Positions 5,336-36,147 of a DNA stretch of 41,111 bases are shown piece by piece. Within the stretch, counting starts at the first letter, position 1; every line of letters starts with the position of its first letter. Origin of the DNA: a virus (taxonomy: Duplodnaviria; Heunggongvirae; Uroviricota; Caudoviricetes); IMG/VR virus record IMGVR_UViG_2724679059_000002, positions 1 to 41,111 of that record; one strand, given 5' to 3'. The notes below the pieces were generated by a model. That model made no database searches. It had not been told where the DNA came from and saw only the letters and a program-made list of their open reading frames with translations. Made by a program: the position numbers and the translations under genes.

Positions 5336-5350
5336 TTACCTTTCAGGTGA
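5336..5350. promoter_or_regulatory. Operator-like palindrome TTACC-N5-GGTGA upstream of antirepressor-like gene
   Basis: Member of the recurrent TTACC-N5-GGTAA family; flanking sequence resembles region 24338-24410. Confidence 0.45.
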
Positions 5351-5387: not shown

Positions 5388-5407
5388 TACTGTATATTTA
5401 TACAGTT
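5388..5407. promoter_or_regulatory. LexA (SOS) box
   Basis: TACTGTATATTTATACAGTT is a near-perfect match to the CTGT-N8-ACAG LexA consensus, 20 bp upstream of the ATG at 5427. Confidence 0.7.
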
Positions 5408-5684: not shown

Positions 5685-5715
5685 GGTTTGTAATTACCAA
5701 GTAGAGTGCTTATAT

Positions 5716-5730
5716 TTACCTCTGCGGTAA
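5716..5730. promoter_or_regulatory. Operator-like palindrome TTACC-N5-GGTAA
   Basis: TTACCTCTGCGGTAA between the small antirepressor-like gene and the Bro-N gene. Confidence 0.4.
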
Positions 5731-5999
5731 ATTTACATCGCACTCCTCTTGTGCCATAGTAATCGGGCACTGGCAAAATCCAGTGCCGGGATTGGCGTCC
5801 CGATTTACTAAGTGGCGCATACCACGCCAGACGTGGTTTTTTTATGCGTTAAGCACAGCTATATCCGAATTATGGTGGGCTGGGCAGGGGTCCGAAAGGA
5901 CGCCGGTACCACTTAGGCCGGTACGCCAACCTTGTCCAGTTCACCACCAGTAATTGGCGTTGCGGTGGTGATTAAAATCACTAAGTGGAGATAACCACC

Positions 6000-6710
6000 A
6001 TGGCTAATGCTCAAACTGCCATCTTCAAATTTGAATCTGTTAACCCTATCCGTTCCATCATTATCGATGGCCAACCATGGTTTGTAGCCCAAGACGTTTG
6101 TAGTGCGCTGCGTATCCAAAACGTCACCCAAGCACTTGAAAAACTGGATGATGATGAAAGGTCTATGTTCAACATAGGGCATGAACATCGTGCAATTTTT
6201 GACAGCCGAGTAAAAGAGATCAACATCATCTCCGAGTCAGGCCTCTACACACTGATCCTCCGCTGCCGCGACGCAGTGACACCAGGCACTATCCCCTACC
6301 GCTTTCGTAAATGGGTTACAGGTGAGGTTCTTCCTCTGATCCGCCGCACTGGAAGTTACATTAAAAACTCGCTCCCGCAGGAAGAACGCATAAAGATGGT
6401 TGCCGACCAGGTAGCCAACGCCACGGCGTCAGCAGTAATGCAGGCAATGAAGATAGAGAACAAAACCTACAGCGCCCCACTGAAGCCCGGATACCGCAGC
6501 CTGATTCATTCTCCGTCTGGTGTTCTCGGCCTGACGGAGAACTCACTGCTGATGAATCTGCTGAACCAGTTACAGGAAGACGGGCACGACGTATCTGGCG
6601 CGGCGGCGGAGCTGACCACCATGTTCTGCTACATCGTTGGTGTGAGCAAATGCCTGCGTGATATCCAGACTCACGCGGAGTATATCAACGACAAAGCAGG
6701 GTTCTTCTGA
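6000..6710 (+). CDS. Bro-N domain protein (phage antirepressor-like) with C-terminal domain
   Basis: N-terminus FKFESVNPIRSIIIDGQPWFVAQDVCSAL matches the Bro-N pattern; RBS ggag upstream; C-terminal domain paralogous to 5427..5684. Confidence 0.65.
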   Translation: MANAQTAIFKFESVNPIRSIIIDGQPWFVAQDVCSALRIQNVTQALEKLDDDERSMFNIGHEHRAIFDSRVKEINIISESGLYTLILRCRDAVTPGTIPYRFRKWVTGEVLPLIRRTGSYIKNSLPQEERIKMVADQVANATASAVMQAMKIENKTYSAPLKPGYRSLIHSPSGVLGLTENSLLMNLLNQLQEDGHDVSGAAAELTTMFCYIVGVSKCLRDIQTHAEYINDKAGFF

Positions 6711-6775: not shown

Positions 6776-6790
6776 TTACCTCAAGGGTAA
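6776..6790. promoter_or_regulatory. Operator-like palindrome TTACC-N5-GGTAA
   Basis: TTACCTCAAGGGTAA upstream of the small ORF / YafO-like pair. Confidence 0.4.
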
Positions 6791-6850: not shown

Positions 6851-7030
6851 ATGCGAAACGAAAAATTGCAGATGCGTAGAGCGCAAGCTGCCGCAAGACG
6901 TTCTTTCAATGGAAGCGTAGAGTACGTAAAAGTTACTATGACAAAAGATCACGCAAGTCGCGTATCCAGCGCTTTCTTTGATTCTCGTAACAATAAGGAA
7001 AATTATGAGTTTGTCTGCGTCGCAGAATGA
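6851..7030 (+). CDS. Small basic protein, candidate antitoxin-like partner (below the 60-aa track threshold)
   Basis: ATG at 6851 with SD tgagg 7 nt upstream; 59 codons; overlaps the start of the YafO-like gene by 26 nt in a different frame; Arg-rich N-terminus followed by a VKVTMTKDHASRVSSAF segment that could be a ribbon-helix-helix strand-helix. Confidence 0.3.
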   Translation: MRNEKLQMRRAQAAARRSFNGSVEYVKVTMTKDHASRVSSAFFDSRNNKENYEFVCVAE

Positions 7031-7550
7031 TAAAAATCAAATTGTCAGATATAAGGGTCGAGTATTGCATACGCAAAATTTCTCGGCCCTTTGTGCATCT
7101 GATCTTGAGCTGAAGAAAGTATCTGATGCATTTACCCAGTATTGGAAAACGGGATACCATCCATCTCTTGGTAAAGATGCCGCATTTGCTCGTCCGACAG
7201 AAATGCTTAAACTAAATGTCAGGCATACTCATGTCGATAACCAAGACTATATTCCAGAAGATAGTGATAAAAAACACACTGGTAAAAAATCATCCTGGGA
7301 TGCATGGAAAAATATAGCGTCTGTACAAGTAAAATGCATACCAACAAGTGATTGCTTTTTAGTTTATTCGGTAAATCACAATCGTGATGCGCTGGTTATG
7401 TTTTTTGTTGACGCAGATGCTCACAACATAACTGAGCAAGAAGAGTTTAAAGAGGCAGCAATCACTATCAGTTATCAATTCTTTGAGAAAACAAAAACAA
7501 AACCAATGCCTTTAGAAGAAGATCTTTTTTCTGATAAATGGAAGGAATAG
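7005..7550 (+). CDS. YafO-family toxin-like protein (ribosome-dependent mRNA interferase family)
   Basis: Aligns by eye with E. coli YafO: GKDAAFARPTEMLKLNVRHTHV vs GRDALYDDSFTWPLIKFERVAHIHL, and CFLVYSVN...ALVMFFVDADAHN vs AHLVYCQG...AWLLIAILKPEPHK; RBS aagga 5 nt before ATG; AT-rich. Confidence 0.55.
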   Translation: MSLSASQNDKNQIVRYKGRVLHTQNFSALCASDLELKKVSDAFTQYWKTGYHPSLGKDAAFARPTEMLKLNVRHTHVDNQDYIPEDSDKKHTGKKSSWDAWKNIASVQVKCIPTSDCFLVYSVNHNRDALVMFFVDADAHNITEQEEFKEAAITISYQFFEKTKTKPMPLEEDLFSDKWKE

Positions 7551-19577: not shown

Positions 19578-19922
19578 TTACACGCCCAGTTCTTTACGCT
19601 TATCTGCGATCTTCTCGCGGAGCGTTTCGGCTTTAGCGTTATGGTGTGGCTTCTCGTTAAAGAGCAATTCGTACTCTTCACGGAGCTTATCCAGTTCACC
19701 ATCATCTGACACATCGTTGATGATTTTGGTGCTGGTTGCTGCCATAGACACCTTTCCTGCTACCTTTGCTTTTGCCTGTCTGGCTGCATCGTTAACAGGT
19801 TCCAGTGCGCTACCAGGCTCACCTTCGTATTCGATTTCTGCCCCCTCCGGCCACAGTGTGTTATGGATATGAGAGAGGCGCAGAACGCGGTATCTTGGTT
19901 TCTCACCTGACATCGATATCAC
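19578..19922 (-). CDS. Hypothetical structural-module protein
   Basis: 114-aa ORF in operon context. Confidence 0.4.
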   Translation of the reverse strand: MISMSGEKPRYRVLRLSHIHNTLWPEGAEIEYEGEPGSALEPVNDAARQAKAKVAGKVSMAATSTKIINDVSDDGELDKLREEYELLFNEKPHHNAKAETLREKIADKRKELGV

Positions 19923-24372: not shown

Positions 24373-24409
24373 TTGACATTTAACGCACAAATTATTACCT
24401 TTCAGGTAA
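24373..24409 (+). promoter_or_regulatory. Candidate promoter (TTGACA -35) with overlapping operator TTACC-TTTCA-GGTAA, directed toward the tRNA and moron
   Basis: Perfect TTGACA at 24373-24378; operator at 24395-24409; same architecture as the promoter at 36105-36147 and sequence similarity to 5285-5350. Confidence 0.4.
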
Positions 24410-24731: not shown

Positions 24732-24808
24732 GTGGCATTAGCTCAGTTGGACAGAGCAACCGCCTTCTAAGCGGTTGGTCGCAGGTTCGAATCCTGCATG
24801 CCACGCCA
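24732..24808 (+). tRNA. tRNA-Arg (anticodon UCU), phage-encoded
   Basis: Full cloverleaf: acceptor GUGGCAU/AUGCCAC, D-arm gctc-agttggaca-gagc, anticodon stem accgc/gcggt with loop cuUCUaa, T-arm gcagg-ttcgaat-cctgc, discriminator G and encoded CCA; close to E. coli argU in the arms. Confidence 0.9.
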
Positions 24809-27584: not shown

Positions 27585-27658
27585 AACCACCGTGGTAATA
27601 GTTACCGTTGTGGTAATAGTACCATGCAAAATAAAGCCGCCATAGTTGGCGGCAGTAT

Positions 27659-27871
27659 TCAAAGTCCATCAAATTCATCGTAAAAACTCTCGTCAAGATA
27701 CCCTTTCCATTTACCGCGAATGAAAATTACATCCTCGCCGCAAGGGTGCTGACTGTCGATAACTATATCCCTCCTGGCGCAACCATACTTATGCATGAGA
27801 AATTTAACCTCTTTCGGAAAATTAGCTGAGTTATCTCTCATATCTTCAAGGTCGTAGCGTATTTTTGGCAT
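27659..27871 (-). CDS. Hypothetical small protein upstream of terS
   Basis: Start set to ATG at 27871 (MPKIRYD...) with RBS gaaggtg; the palindrome GTGACATGTCAC lies immediately upstream. Confidence 0.4.
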   Translation of the reverse strand: MPKIRYDLEDMRDNSANFPKEVKFLMHKYGCARRDIVIDSQHPCGEDVIFIRGKWKGYLDESFYDEFDGL

Positions 27872-27888
27872 AACACCTTCGTGACATG

Positions 27889-28230
27889 TCACACTATTAA
27901 TTTCGTTTCATGCCAGCCTTTGGTCACCCAGCATTGCGAGTCACCATTACACGGGCATGAATTAACTGGAACTCTCTCGCCGCACTTACCGCAACGTTTT
28001 CTGCTGATCGATTTTATACGCCCGCGCACCCGGGCATCATCCTGGCGGATCAGCAGCGCGATGTACTCGGCCATTTCATAGGGATCTCGACCAGGGCGCC
28101 GGGCGGCGCAGTTACGCTCCAGCATTTCAATTTCCTGAGCATCAAGCACAATCTCCAGCTTACGCACACCAGATGCAGCTTGTCTGGCTCTCTGAGCGGC
28201 TTTGCGCTCTGCTGCTGATTTAGCCATCAA
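27889..28230 (-). CDS. Hypothetical protein with C-terminal Cys cluster (possible zinc-binding regulator)
   Basis: 113 aa; C-terminus CGKCGERVPVNSCPCNGDSQC; basic, helical N-terminus. Confidence 0.4.
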   Translation of the reverse strand: MMAKSAAERKAAQRARQAASGVRKLEIVLDAQEIEMLERNCAARRPGRDPYEMAEYIALLIRQDDARVRGRIKSISRKRCGKCGERVPVNSCPCNGDSQCWVTKGWHETKLIV

Positions 28231-32668: not shown

Positions 32669-33013
32669 TCAGAACTCTTCGATGTTCCAGCCACCACCTG
32701 CTTTCTTTGGCTTAACCGTTACCCCGATGATTCGGAACGGATACTGATCTGCGGCGACTTTGGTTTTCACCCTAGCGTCATCGGTCCAGAAACCTTTCAC
32801 TTCGTGCAGTTCCATCTCGCCGGTGGCGAGCATCACAGCAAAATCGGGCGTATAGAACGTGTTGTCAGCTAACCGCAGCTTGAGACCCTCGAATCGATAC
32901 CAGGCGATTTCCCCTGCACGTTTACGCTGCTCAAGGTGCTGGCAATACGCAGATTCTGTTTTGTTCATCTGACCTGTTTTGAGTCGACCAAGAGCCTGTA
33001 TCTGTTTTCTCAT
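32669..33013 (-). CDS. DUF1064-family phage protein
   Basis: 114 aa with FYTPDF and HEVKG motifs characteristic of DUF1064; nin-like position after replication gene P. Confidence 0.5.
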   Translation of the reverse strand: MRKQIQALGRLKTGQMNKTESAYCQHLEQRKRAGEIAWYRFEGLKLRLADNTFYTPDFAVMLATGEMELHEVKGFWTDDARVKTKVAADQYPFRIIGVTVKPKKAGGGWNIEEF

Positions 33014-33016
33014 GAT

Positions 33017-33093
33017 TTACCCCTGAGGTAATTAAAAACCACATAAGACACGAAATCAATAGATTTTAGTATATTTTATTACCCGACAGGTAA
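33017..33093 (-). promoter_or_regulatory. Candidate internal promoter flanked by two operator-like palindromes
   Basis: On the - strand TTGATT-17 bp-TTTAAT, with TTACC-CCTGA-GGTAA (33017-33031) overlapping the RBS of the DUF1064 gene and TTACC-CGACA-GGTAA (33079-33093) upstream. Confidence 0.35.
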
Positions 33094-33130
33094 TCATTTA
33101 GGAGTAAAAAAATGCGCTATCGCGCTGGTA

Positions 33131-33907
33131 TTACTTGATAAATCCTGCCGCCTTTCCCCGCCTGTATTCCTCCATCAGCCACTGTGCCGGTGTTATTCCA
33201 CCCAGGGTGGCGGCGTTAGGCATGCACCCGAAACTTCGCCCTGGTGGATGGTAAACGTCTCTCCCTGTGTCCGGAGGTGTACTCATGGGTTCTGGCTTTG
33301 CCTGTATGCTGATCACCGGATCGGGTATCTGCTGTCCGGAAGCCACCTTTTTCGCCCAATCATCGAGCAACCTGCGCGCGTGTTTCTCAACCTCAATCTC
33401 GCTAAGCTGGCGCTGATACATTGCACGGCGGGTATCACATACTACCCAGTACATAACCGGATGTCGCCACGGGAATCTTTCGGGACCACCAGGATATAAA
33501 CTTTTTTCCTTGCTGTACCGGTGAAACTCCGCCATCACATCGTCAATGGTGACGCCAAGAACCATCTTGCTGTCTTTACACCACTTGATGAATTGCCCTG
33601 GCGACGGCCAGAACGGAGACTCACTGGCGCGGGCGTGGCGCATACCAGCGTTAACCTGTTCCATTGTAGTGATCCCATTCTCCAGAAACGCAAGCATCCA
33701 TTGCTTACGGAATTCATTAAGTTTGTTCTGCTCCCTTATGGTCGAAACGCTTGCAGGAAATGCAGCCTGTAACTGGACAAATAGTTCATTGAAAATTCTA
33801 GCGACCTGCTCCTTTTTGCCATTGCTGTCACGCCGCTCTTCATGCACAGCAACACCATGCTCACGTAAGCGATCGTACTCATTGAGAAGTTCTGGAGTTG
33901 ATTTCAT
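33131..33907 (-). CDS. P: Replication protein P-like (DnaB helicase loader)
   Basis: FPASVSTIREQNKLNEFRKQWMLAFLENGITTMEQVNAGMRHAR aligns closely with lambda P (FPASLANRDQNEVNEIRRQWVLAFRENGITTMEQVNAGMRVAR). Confidence 0.85.
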   Translation of the reverse strand: MKSTPELLNEYDRLREHGVAVHEERRDSNGKKEQVARIFNELFVQLQAAFPASVSTIREQNKLNEFRKQWMLAFLENGITTMEQVNAGMRHARASESPFWPSPGQFIKWCKDSKMVLGVTIDDVMAEFHRYSKEKSLYPGGPERFPWRHPVMYWVVCDTRRAMYQRQLSEIEVEKHARRLLDDWAKKVASGQQIPDPVISIQAKPEPMSTPPDTGRDVYHPPGRSFGCMPNAATLGGITPAQWLMEEYRRGKAAGFIK

Positions 33908-35023: not shown

Positions 35024-35044
35024 ACAGAGGGTTGTAGCTGGATA

Positions 35045-35275
35045 TCATGAGTAGAAGAAGTATGCCAGTTCTGCTTTTGAGCGCAGCCATTGTCTTGTTT
35101 TACAGGCTTTAAAAAGCCCATTCATCAATACTTTACCTGGCATTTTGCGCTTACCTGTTAAGTGAGTCTGGATATAGTGACTCGTCGTTCCGGCTTCCTG
35201 TGCGAAGGCTTCACGCTCATCCGGAGTAAGTGCAAGCCAGTGCTTTTTGAAATCGAAATGTCCGTTATCGCTCAT
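35045..35275 (-). CDS. Cro/CII-like HTH regulator (first gene of the operon divergent from the repressor)
   Basis: 76 aa; HTH-like segment AFAQEAGTTSHYIQTHLTGKR; divergent from the CI-like gene across an operator-containing region. Confidence 0.5.
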   Translation of the reverse strand: MSDNGHFDFKKHWLALTPDEREAFAQEAGTTSHYIQTHLTGKRKMPGKVLMNGLFKACKTRQWLRSKAELAYFFYS

Positions 35276-35311: not shown

Positions 35312-35374
35312 TCACCCATAAGGTAACAAAAATCAAGGATAGTTACCTATGAGGTGCATTTACCTGTTGGGTAA
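35312..35374. promoter_or_regulatory. Immunity-region operators: three TTACC-N5-GGTAA-type sites between cro-like and repressor genes
   Basis: Sites at 35312-35326 (TCACC-CATAA-GGTAA), 35343-35357 (TTACC-TATGA-GGTGC) and 35360-35374 (TTACC-TGTTG-GGTAA), centre spacing 31 and 17 bp; half-sites resemble lambda operator half-sites (TCACC / GGTA). Confidence 0.6.
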
Positions 35375-35429: not shown

Positions 35430-36014
35430 ATGAAAAGTATCCAGGACGTCCGCAGGCAAAATCTCAACGACTTGATCGACCGTGAATTCAATGGTGTTCA
35501 GACGCGGATGGCAGAAAAACTTGGAACTCAGGCAAATCTGGTAAACCGCTGGGCTCTTGGCAAGAAGGTTATCGGCGACCAGGTTGCGCGAAAAATTGAA
35601 GCTGCCGCCAATAAACCCCGTAACTGGCTTGATATCGATCGCTCGCTTTCTCAGGAGGGGTTTCAGCCTGTCGGCCCAAGCGACATTGGTCAGCTGGCGG
35701 CTCACAACCTGGAACGCTGGATGAGCGAAAGCCGCGACCTTTCAACGCAGGGAAAACTACACCGCGCATCCGGCGTCGCCCAGGTGACAATCAGCCGCCT
35801 GTTAAACAATGAAGTCAGCGTTTCCATTTCCACCCTGGAGAATGTTGCATCCGCATTCGGGCGTCACGGCTATGAATTACTGATTCACCCGCACGACCCT
35901 GCGACTATCAACTATGACCGCTCGCGCTACGCATTGTTACCCGAAACAGAGAAGGCAAAGATCGAAAGTTACATTGAATTTGTCATCAGCCAGAACGAAA
36001 GAAGCAAACAATAA
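35430..36014 (+). CDS. CI-like prophage repressor with two HTH regions and no S24 peptidase domain
   Basis: HTH at QTRMAEKLGTQANLVNRWALGK and a second HTH-like segment ASGVAQVTISRLLNNE; no Ser-Lys autocleavage motifs; divergent from the cro-like gene. Confidence 0.6.
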   Translation: MKSIQDVRRQNLNDLIDREFNGVQTRMAEKLGTQANLVNRWALGKKVIGDQVARKIEAAANKPRNWLDIDRSLSQEGFQPVGPSDIGQLAAHNLERWMSESRDLSTQGKLHRASGVAQVTISRLLNNEVSVSISTLENVASAFGRHGYELLIHPHDPATINYDRSRYALLPETEKAKIESYIEFVISQNERSKQ

Positions 36015-36070
36015 AACTATAGTTTTCAGTAAGTAAGCCGCCTCATGGCGCTTTTTTATTGCCAACAAGA

Positions 36071-36147
36071 TTACCTTATGGGTAATTTTTTTAACTCATA
36101 TCTATTGACATCAAACCAAATACGCATAATTATTACCTCAACGGTAA
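36071..36147 (+). promoter_or_regulatory. PL-like early promoter with flanking operators
   Basis: Operator TTACC-TTATG-GGTAA (36071-36085), TTGACA (36105-36110), 17-bp spacer, AATTAT (36128-36133), operator TTACC-TCAAC-GGTAA (36133-36147). Confidence 0.5.

Follow-up and report, generated by a model that had tools for sequence, protein, structure and literature searches.

In Salmonella phage SPC32H, the repressor Rep binds palindromic DNA sites as a tetramer in which each DNA-binding pair is made up of subunits from different dimers, and it is disassembled by the antirepressor Ant, itself tetrameric (PMC9638917). The C-terminal domain of Rep has been assigned to the DNA-looping ('TetDloop') class of tetramerisation, and a 2023 structural paper describes the repression mechanism as one that structurally 'has not been extensively characterized' (PMC9986798). 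Repressor sites are also on record for phage epsilon15, whose RefSeq entry (NC_004775.2) lists 'protein_bind: repressor' features upstream of the small terminase gene (12-27), at 2931-2947 and 19895-19911, at three OL sites and at 35906-35922. Here we analyse a 41,111-nucleotide stretch of viral DNA (IMG/VR record IMGVR_UViG_2724679059_000002, hereafter the window), whose source is a phiV10/epsilon15-like (Uetakevirus) Escherichia coli prophage, and in it the entire intergenic gap at 33130-33014, read on the - strand, between a replication gene P and a DUF1064 gene. Identity to phiv142-3, TL-2011b and phiV10 in this region is 96-97%. The interval is probably a secondary early promoter module of the prophage, controlled by a repressor of the SPC32H Rep type; we call this promoter module P33.

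Elements of the gap and the proposed circuit

The gap and its flanks contain the following elements.

33131..33907, - strand: replication protein P-like gene (Pfam PF06992, Phage_lambda_P, E 1.7e-55)
33133-33131, - strand: stop codon TAA of the P-like gene, read directly
33106..33125, - strand: intrinsic-terminator-like element, GCGC/GATA/GCGC, A, T7, from sequence and conservation
33079..33093 (read 33093-33079 on the - strand): operator A, promoter-distal, TTACCTGTCGGGTAA, exact copy of the palindrome
33071..33078, - strand: A/T tract TAAAATAT directly after operator A, at about -54 to -47 from the predicted start
33054..33059, - strand: -35-like hexamer TTGATT, inside CTATTGA, read directly
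33031..33036, - strand: -10-like hexamer TTTAAT, 17 nt past the -35, from direct reading and the weight matrix
33017..33031, palindrome on both strands: operator B, promoter-proximal, TTACCTCAGGGGTAA, exact copy
32669..33013, - strand: DUF1064 gene, first of the downstream unit (Pfam PF06356)

The promoter-like element TTGATT-17-TTTAAT stands on the - strand where the original prediction had put it, between gene P and the nin-like genes, and Pfam supports the assignment of both the P-like and the DUF1064 gene. The two TTACC-N5-GGTAA sites that had been said to bracket it are both exact, with centres 62 bp apart. Operator A extends to a 17-bp palindrome, ATTACC-N5-GGTAAT, and operator B begins with the T that ends the -10-like hexamer. 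The claimed overlap of one site with the ribosome-binding region of the DUF1064 gene was found at operator B, which includes the Shine-Dalgarno sequence AGGGG (33024-33020), 6 nt before the ATG at 33013.

A terminator-like hairpin with its T-run, absent from the elements that had been listed earlier, precedes operator A. The hairpin (33125-33114) and the T7 run (33112-33106) follow the P-like gene, which is the last gene of an upstream unit in the order cro-like, gp42-like, DnaT-like, P. Its stem has four G-C pairs closed by the loop GATA and was not listed by the terminator scan because the scan required a minimum of five pairs. The region folds at -9.3 kcal/mol (z -3.1), and the phiV10 record marks a rho-independent terminator at the equivalent position (35038-35057). 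We aligned the module in eight reference Uetakeviruses from E. coli, Salmonella, Enterobacter and Klebsiella; all eight phages have identical GCGC stems and T7 runs, and the loop varies except for its last A. On the - strand, no terminator-like hairpin with six or more stem pairs is predicted from 33000 to 27653, and the next predicted terminator (27653..27636) lies just before the small terminase subunit gene. Thus, a transcript from P33 would span about 5.4 kb of nin-like genes, a block that comprises genes for DUF1064, Eae-like, PAPS-reductase-domain, Ead/Ea22, DUF551 and DUF4752 proteins and a small regulator.

Taken together, the layout suggests the following circuit. The conserved terminator would end the cro/replication transcript driven by PR just after gene P, and about 70 bp further on the sigma-70-type promoter would restart transcription near 33024 to serve the DUF1064/Eae-like/PAPS-reductase/Ead-like block of about 5.4 kb. 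In the lysogen, Rep bound at operators A and B would keep this unit silent, and one Rep tetramer, with its two DNA-binding pairs, may bridge both operators and enclose the promoter. The 62-bp spacing corresponds to about 5.9 helical turns and places both operators on the same face of the DNA, so that one tetramer could hold both, and the composition of the DNA between operators A and B, 79% A+T, fits such bridging. The bridging tetramer would close the promoter and bar read-through; Rep at operator B alone would prevent open complexes from forming and would also halt polymerases that had passed the terminator. Upon DNA damage, cleavage of LexA would lead to Ant synthesis and removal of Rep, and P33 would then fire along with PR and PL. 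We infer Rep binding at A and B, bridging by a single tetramer, promoter activity and terminator efficiency from sequence.

The counterpart of this locus in epsilon15 is organised in the same way. The annotated repressor feature at 35906-35922 is the orthologue of operator A (sequence ATTACCAAAAGGGTAAT), and, as in the window, ATTACC-N5-GGTAAT follows a replication gene and has GCGC-N4-GCGC-T7 upstream of it. The operator A orthologue is followed by TTGAAA-17-TTAAAT and then by a second site at 35969; the record marks only the upstream site, whereas the second site and the promoter are unannotated. The flanking genes differ, being a DnaT-like gene and a RuvC-like resolvase gene in epsilon15 and P and DUF1064 in the window.

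The presumed repressor, the PL-like twin and the promoter-like element

Elsewhere in the window we identified the candidate repressor, the other promoter-like regions near its gene and an antirepressor homologue.

35430..36014, + strand: repressor (Rep) gene, presumed binder of operators A and B, by homology to SPC32H Rep
35312..35374: OR region, with three operators between the cro-like and rep genes
35312-35326 (1 mismatch), 35343-35357 (2 mismatches) and 35360-35374 (exact): the OR operators
36071..36147, + strand: PL-like module, with operator, 19 nt, TTGACA, 17 nt and AATTAT/operator, centres 62 bp apart
35045-35275: cro-like protein gene, 76 amino acids
5427-5684, + strand: Ant antirepressor homologue, 85 amino acids, 89% identity to SPC32H Ant
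5390-5405: LexA box CTGTATATTTATACAG, near-consensus, before ant, by pattern match

The predicted Rep matches SPC32H Rep (PDB 5D50) over its full length with an E value of 4.5e-42. Operators A and B carry the same motif as the sites that flank its gene, namely those of OR, where the operators overlap the PR-like TTGTTA-17-TATTAT, and those of OL/PL at 36071 and 36133. All eight reference genomes have the same TTACC/GGTAA half-sites, with 8-11 exact copies each, and this fits the N-terminal Rep segment NLVNRW, which is invariant in seven phages even though the other six Reps are 43-98% identical to that of the window. With an Ant homologue and a LexA box both in place, the SOS-Ant-Rep induction route of the SPC32H type appears to be intact in the window, and LexA box and Ant presumably form the input that frees Rep from all its operators.

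The PL-like promoter, TTGACA-17-AATTAT, lies just downstream of the Rep gene and is directed away from it. Its module and P33 have identical spacings throughout (operator, 19 nt, -35, 17 nt, -10), the 19-nt stretch after the operator ends in ATCTATTGA in both, and in both the -10 and the second operator share one T, final in the former and initial in the latter. Between the sites, 24 of the 47 bases are identical, a level reached in 82 of 20,000 shuffles. Across the reference phages the PL modules likewise keep a fixed geometry, with 62 or 63 bp between operator centres; they have a T-run where P33 has TAAAATAT, and CTATTGA is again invariant.

The promoter-like element was ranked with a sigma-70 weight matrix that we made ourselves from base frequencies in published compilations, and the scores are approximate. 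TTGATT-17-TTTAAT ranks 13th among the 82,160 positions of the window. The same matrix places the PR-like element 3rd and the PL-like element 6th, with a site at 5688-5716 (+) 2nd and one at 24373-24401 (+) 7th, these last two both being overlapped by operators. Six of the 13 top promoter-like sites overlap an operator, as compared with 1.6% of positions (hypergeometric p 2e-8), and the arrangement in which the end of the -10 shares its T with the operator start is found at 5716, 33017 and 36133. TTGATT matches TTGACA at four of six positions, and the 17-nt spacer lies within the 16-18 nt range. A stricter promoter scan, which demands an A at the second position of the -10, does not list the element. 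In the 17-nt register the predicted start near 33024 puts operator B at -7 to +8 and operator A at -69 to -55, with the centre of operator A at about -62, and the intervening TAAAATAT tract may act like an UP element.

Other promoter readings of the gap were rejected by eye: TAAAAT after operator A, if taken as a -10, is not preceded by a conserved -35 at a distance of 16-18 nt, an antisense promoter on the + strand between operators A and B has no -35, and the spacing requirements are satisfied neither by an extended -10 built on the conserved TGG nor by TGG...GC read as a sigma-54 promoter.

The module is conserved well beyond the window. In all eight reference phages operators A and B are 62 bp apart with no insertions or deletions between them, and both half-site pairs, CTATTGA and the AAT of the -10 are invariant. 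The gene upstream varies (P or DnaT-like), as does the gene downstream (DUF1064 or RuvC-like resolvase), and the position of operator B relative to the ATG is fixed whichever downstream gene follows; the distance is constant save for a 2-nt insertion in two Klebsiella phages. When IMG/VR was scanned for two sites with 44-50 nt between them, the pair was found in at least 119 contigs, mostly of about 40 kb, many of which, like the window, have two pairs about 3 kb apart. Oriented pairs, which were collected by the TTACC/GGTAA motif with spans of 74-80 nt allowed, numbered 217 among the matches listed, and 192 of these span 77 nt, 24 span 78 nt and one spans 76 nt. The 69 unique IMG/VR variants of the module were collected with TTGA required; the CTA that precedes it was not required and is nevertheless invariant, so that CTATTGA is the same in every variant, as are the T, A, A and T positions of the -10. 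The TAAAATAT tract is nearly invariant in the eight-phage alignment and in the 69 variants alike. In all 69, the N5 of operator B is limited to purine-rich, Shine-Dalgarno-like sequences, a restriction that fits a double role for operator B, in Rep binding and in ribosome binding. Of 5,426 complete E. coli genomes, 530 carry the module.

Several findings weigh against a strong, Rep-controlled and independent promoter. Although TTTAAT has a T at -7, in the 17-nt register it also has a T at -11, and this holds for all 69 variants. In the 18-nt register the hexamer is TTAATT in the window and other E. coli-type variants, whereas 39 of the 69 relatives have the better TAAATT; because of the -11 T and of TTAATT in place of TAAATT, the promoter may be weak in the window's lineage. 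The predicted leader is just about 11 nt long and starts at the Shine-Dalgarno sequence. With a terminator stem of 4 bp, much of the expression downstream could come from transcripts that read through from PR. Finally, all relatives have the same half-sites and so offer no heteroimmune case of co-variation.

Repressor-gated expression of the downstream genes, independent of the main early promoter, had been the functional claim of the original prediction. The identity of operators A and B with the OR/OL sites, the geometry held in common with the PL-like module, the conservation of both and the epsilon15 annotation support such gating at the level of sequence. The conserved upstream terminator makes the claim of independence stronger, and how far the downstream unit is independent depends on the efficiency of that 4-bp-stem terminator.

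Operator copies across the window and their variable centres

Allowing at most one mismatch, TTACC-N5-GGTAA occurs 13 times in the window, nine times exactly, as compared with a shuffle mean of 0.73 and maximum of 4. In an unbiased count of 5-mer inverted repeats in the window and two relatives, TTACC with a 5-nt gap is by far the top repeat. The 13 sites lie at PL, PR and P33, ahead of the small terminase gene (terS), of a tRNA gene and of an isrK/C4/Bro-N unit, and in the gap between ant and a tailspike gene. Nearly all copies are intergenic, most overlap promoter-like elements, and the palindrome is found in both orientations and in the divergent OR region.

Several of these sites have neighbours worth describing. 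In the gap between ant and a divergently oriented tailspike-like gene is an operator with one mismatch (5336-5350). The strong promoter-like site TTGTAA-17-TATATT (5688-5716, +) overlaps the operator at 5716-5730, downstream of which are Rfam matches to isrK (5767-5843) and C4 antisense RNA (5868-5951) and a Bro-N-domain gene (5985-6710); the segment 5688-6710 resembles a P1/Gifsy-type antisense-RNA-controlled antirepressor module, apparently under Rep control. An exact operator at 6776-6790 (+) precedes an open reading frame region (6978-7550) that weakly matches the YafO toxin family of Pfam (E 1.2e-5, slightly over the threshold), and this region may be a toxin-like accessory gene under Rep control. 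Upstream of the tRNA-Arg(UCU) gene (24732-24808), TTGACA is followed after 16 nt by an operator at 24395-24409 (+), and the same TTGACA-N16-operator layout is found in epsilon15 at the annotated repressor site 2931-2947.

On the - strand, two adjacent operators 18 bp apart (27616-27584) lie between the strong terminator hairpin 27653-27636 and an ATGATG start; no promoter-like element was found between or after the sites of this terminase-proximal pair (27584/27602). The small terminase gene of phiV10-type records is a 224-amino acid open reading frame with a TTG start, and reading from there would cross the terminator as well as the two operators. Because the Pfam match begins at residue 45, the start given in those records probably lies too far upstream. 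Between a 113-amino acid regulator gene and the terminator there is a stretch of about 190-230 nt with a small open reading frame (27663-27888, -); the phiV10 record, which ends together with the regulator gene, contains nothing equivalent. The cro-like gene is also followed by a hairpin (35023-35004) and then by a one-mismatch operator, GTACCTCAAAGGTAA (34989-34975, -), past which a weak TTGATC-17/18-AAATAT stands ahead of a 70-amino acid open reading frame. The layout of terminator followed by operator is thus seen in three - strand cases: in the P33 gap, after the cro-like gene and before the small terminase gene.

This recurrence is one argument for an alternative in which the sites act as a roadblock or insulator with no working promoter, Rep bound there mainly backing up terminators against leakage from PR in the lysogen. 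On this view the -35- and -10-like elements would be the remains of a PL copy in decay, and lytic expression of the downstream genes would depend on read-through. The terminase-proximal operator pair with no promoter-like element fits this explanation, as do the P33 -10 that lacks an A at -11 and the 4-bp terminator stem. However, CTATTGA and AAT are invariant and the 19- and 17-nt spacings are constant across four host genera, unlike what is expected of a decayed copy, and the element still ranks 13th of 82,160 positions as a promoter. One site would be enough for a roadblock, which leaves a phased pair enclosing a -35 and -10 unexplained. We therefore regard a roadblock in place of a promoter as unlikely, and a roadblock role is in any case compatible with the Rep-controlled promoter that we favour.

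A further alternative is that the chief user of the sites is a protein other than Rep, for example the cro-like protein (35045-35275) or the late 'transcriptional regulator' (27889-28230), and that they serve to time lytic expression instead of silencing the lysogen. Cro and CI use common operators in lambda-type switches, which gives this proposal a precedent. In contrast, the DNA-binding segment NLVNRW is invariant in Reps only 43-45% identical to that of the window, matching the invariance of the half-sites, the epsilon15 annotators credited the sites to the repressor, and shared use by a Cro-like protein would add to control by Rep, not replace it. Main use by a regulator other than Rep is thus highly improbable.

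The sequence diversity of the operators bears on how they are read. We took the best 80 IMG/VR loci picked by Rep alone (Rep 98-100% identical to that of the window) and found the 161-nt module in 73 of them, in 59 versions. The differences among the 73 loci fall nearly all in four places: the N5 of operator A, about 10 nt from the T-run to operator A, two N5 positions of operator B, and two or three positions just 5' of CTATTGA. Among 78 haplotypes with Rep at least 98% identical, the five central positions of operator A have nucleotide diversities of 0.08, 0.54, 0.53, 0.67 and 0.51, with 3-4 alleles per site, as compared with 0-0.03 in the half-sites, 0.042-0.046 at third codon positions of the flanking genes and 0.038 over all intergenic columns. 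The variable 20-nt block diverges about 10-19 times faster per site than its 1.1-kb flanks, and distinct block haplotypes are mostly one base from their nearest neighbour. In the window, the hypervariable stretches are 33084-33103 and 36064-36080, the PL distal operator (36071-36085) and its 5' flank, about 10 nt up to the preceding terminator, following the same pattern. Salmonella and Klebsiella lineages almost always have AAAAA or AAAAG as the N5 of operator A. Invariant arms with free central bases are the signature of a protein-DNA site read via its arms.

Relaxed constraint by itself would be expected to allow no more than the synonymous rate. As a source of this diversity, gene conversion between operator copies was rejected, as just 2 of about 25 operator A alleles have an N5 that is also found in another of the window's operators, and so was an origin of the variable block in the Salmonella or Klebsiella lineages, since AAAAA and AAAAG never occur in the E. 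coli set. A tentative proposal, which we hold to be doubtful, is that the non-contacted operator bases are under diversifying selection or at a mutation hot spot, an idea linked to that of a tetramer clamp on a 62-bp loop. Selection could, for example, tune the affinity of Rep and hence the induction threshold or leakiness; central operator bases tune affinity for the repressors of 434 and P22. Alternatively, a hot spot could be made by the bound repressor or by the palindrome, and very short-patch recombination could be a third source of the N5 diversity.

An element acting at the RNA level, in which the palindromes form small hairpins (5-bp stem, 5-nt loop) for antitermination or for masking of the Shine-Dalgarno sequence by operator B, is the least credible explanation and can be set aside: the hairpin would equal lambda boxB in size, operator B contains the Shine-Dalgarno sequence and the sites lie just downstream of a terminator, but the arms are invariant with no compensatory change and the loops hypervariable, the opposite of a protein-recognised RNA hairpin and of the conserved loop and compensatory stem of the lambda nut/boxB type, the motif occurs in both orientations and also in the divergent OR, and the folds are weak (A, -5.6 kcal/mol; B, -4.2 kcal/mol with z -0.18, no better than shuffles).

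Relation to known switches and operator arrangements

Dispersed repressor sites in the genus, including one at the position of operator A, are already prior knowledge at the level of annotation. The phiV10-type records annotate terminators only and not operator sites, and the paper on ZX5 predicted four promoters and speculated on PL. In the full-text literature on phiV10, epsilon15, Uetakevirus and SPC32H, a body that excludes the primary epsilon15 and SPC32H papers, we found no description of the motif. To this knowledge our analysis adds the second site, the geometry of a promoter-enclosing pair that P33 has in common with PL, and its conservation across the genus. Phage regulatory circuits of this type are known, and P33 is an ordinary component of one.

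The SPC32H Rep/Ant/LexA switch (PDB 5D50/5D4Z) has all its components in the window, namely Rep, Ant and the LexA box, with the window Rep about 43% identical to the Salmonella proteins. Induction by an antirepressor would set the window apart from lambda, where it proceeds by RecA-stimulated self-cleavage (PMC9638917). The window resembles lambda PL/OL and PR/OR in having a helix-turn-helix repressor, palindromic operators placed over the -10/+1 or the -35, and a tripartite OR between divergent repressor and cro-like genes. In function, the nearest classical analogues are the lambda OL/PL unit and the scattered-operator regulons of P1, phiC31 and the L5-type mycobacteriophages. The operators of lambda are adjacent, 23-24 bp apart, whereas the 62-bp pair in the window encloses a promoter. 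Parallels to this last arrangement are LacI O1-O3, GalR and pLS20 Rco, which, like Rep, are tetramers with two DNA-binding units and in-phase operators flanking a promoter; by analogy, Rep may form a loop at the 62-bp A/B pair. A phased natural operator pair of this kind is a test bed for a tetrameric SPC32H-type repressor on DNA.

With respect to the number of sites, P1, with its C1 operators, and phiC31, with its conserved inverted repeats, are examples of temperate phages with dispersed-operator regulons. The stoperators of mycobacteriophages L5 and Bxb1 are likewise scattered repressor sites (PMC1934351). Likened by site layout, P1, phiC31 and L5/Bxb1 all share with the window a single lysogeny repressor with many scattered sites that gate several units. 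Unlike the sites of the window, which are perfect palindromes and mostly lie over promoter-like elements, P1 operators and stoperators lack symmetry, and stoperators moreover favour one orientation and exert their effect on elongation; a mycobacteriophage-type stoperator is ruled out by palindromic symmetry, intergenic placement and promoter overlap.

The distribution of the sites provides a map of what Rep must release: PL, PR, P33 and the sites before the terminase genes, the tRNA gene and the isrK/C4/Bro-N unit. It also points to a distinct wiring of the prophage. In lambda there is one early promoter, and the nin region is reached by N antitermination from PR; in the window the rightward early region is split into terminator-bounded units, and at least the P33 unit appears to be restarted by a separate promoter held by Rep.

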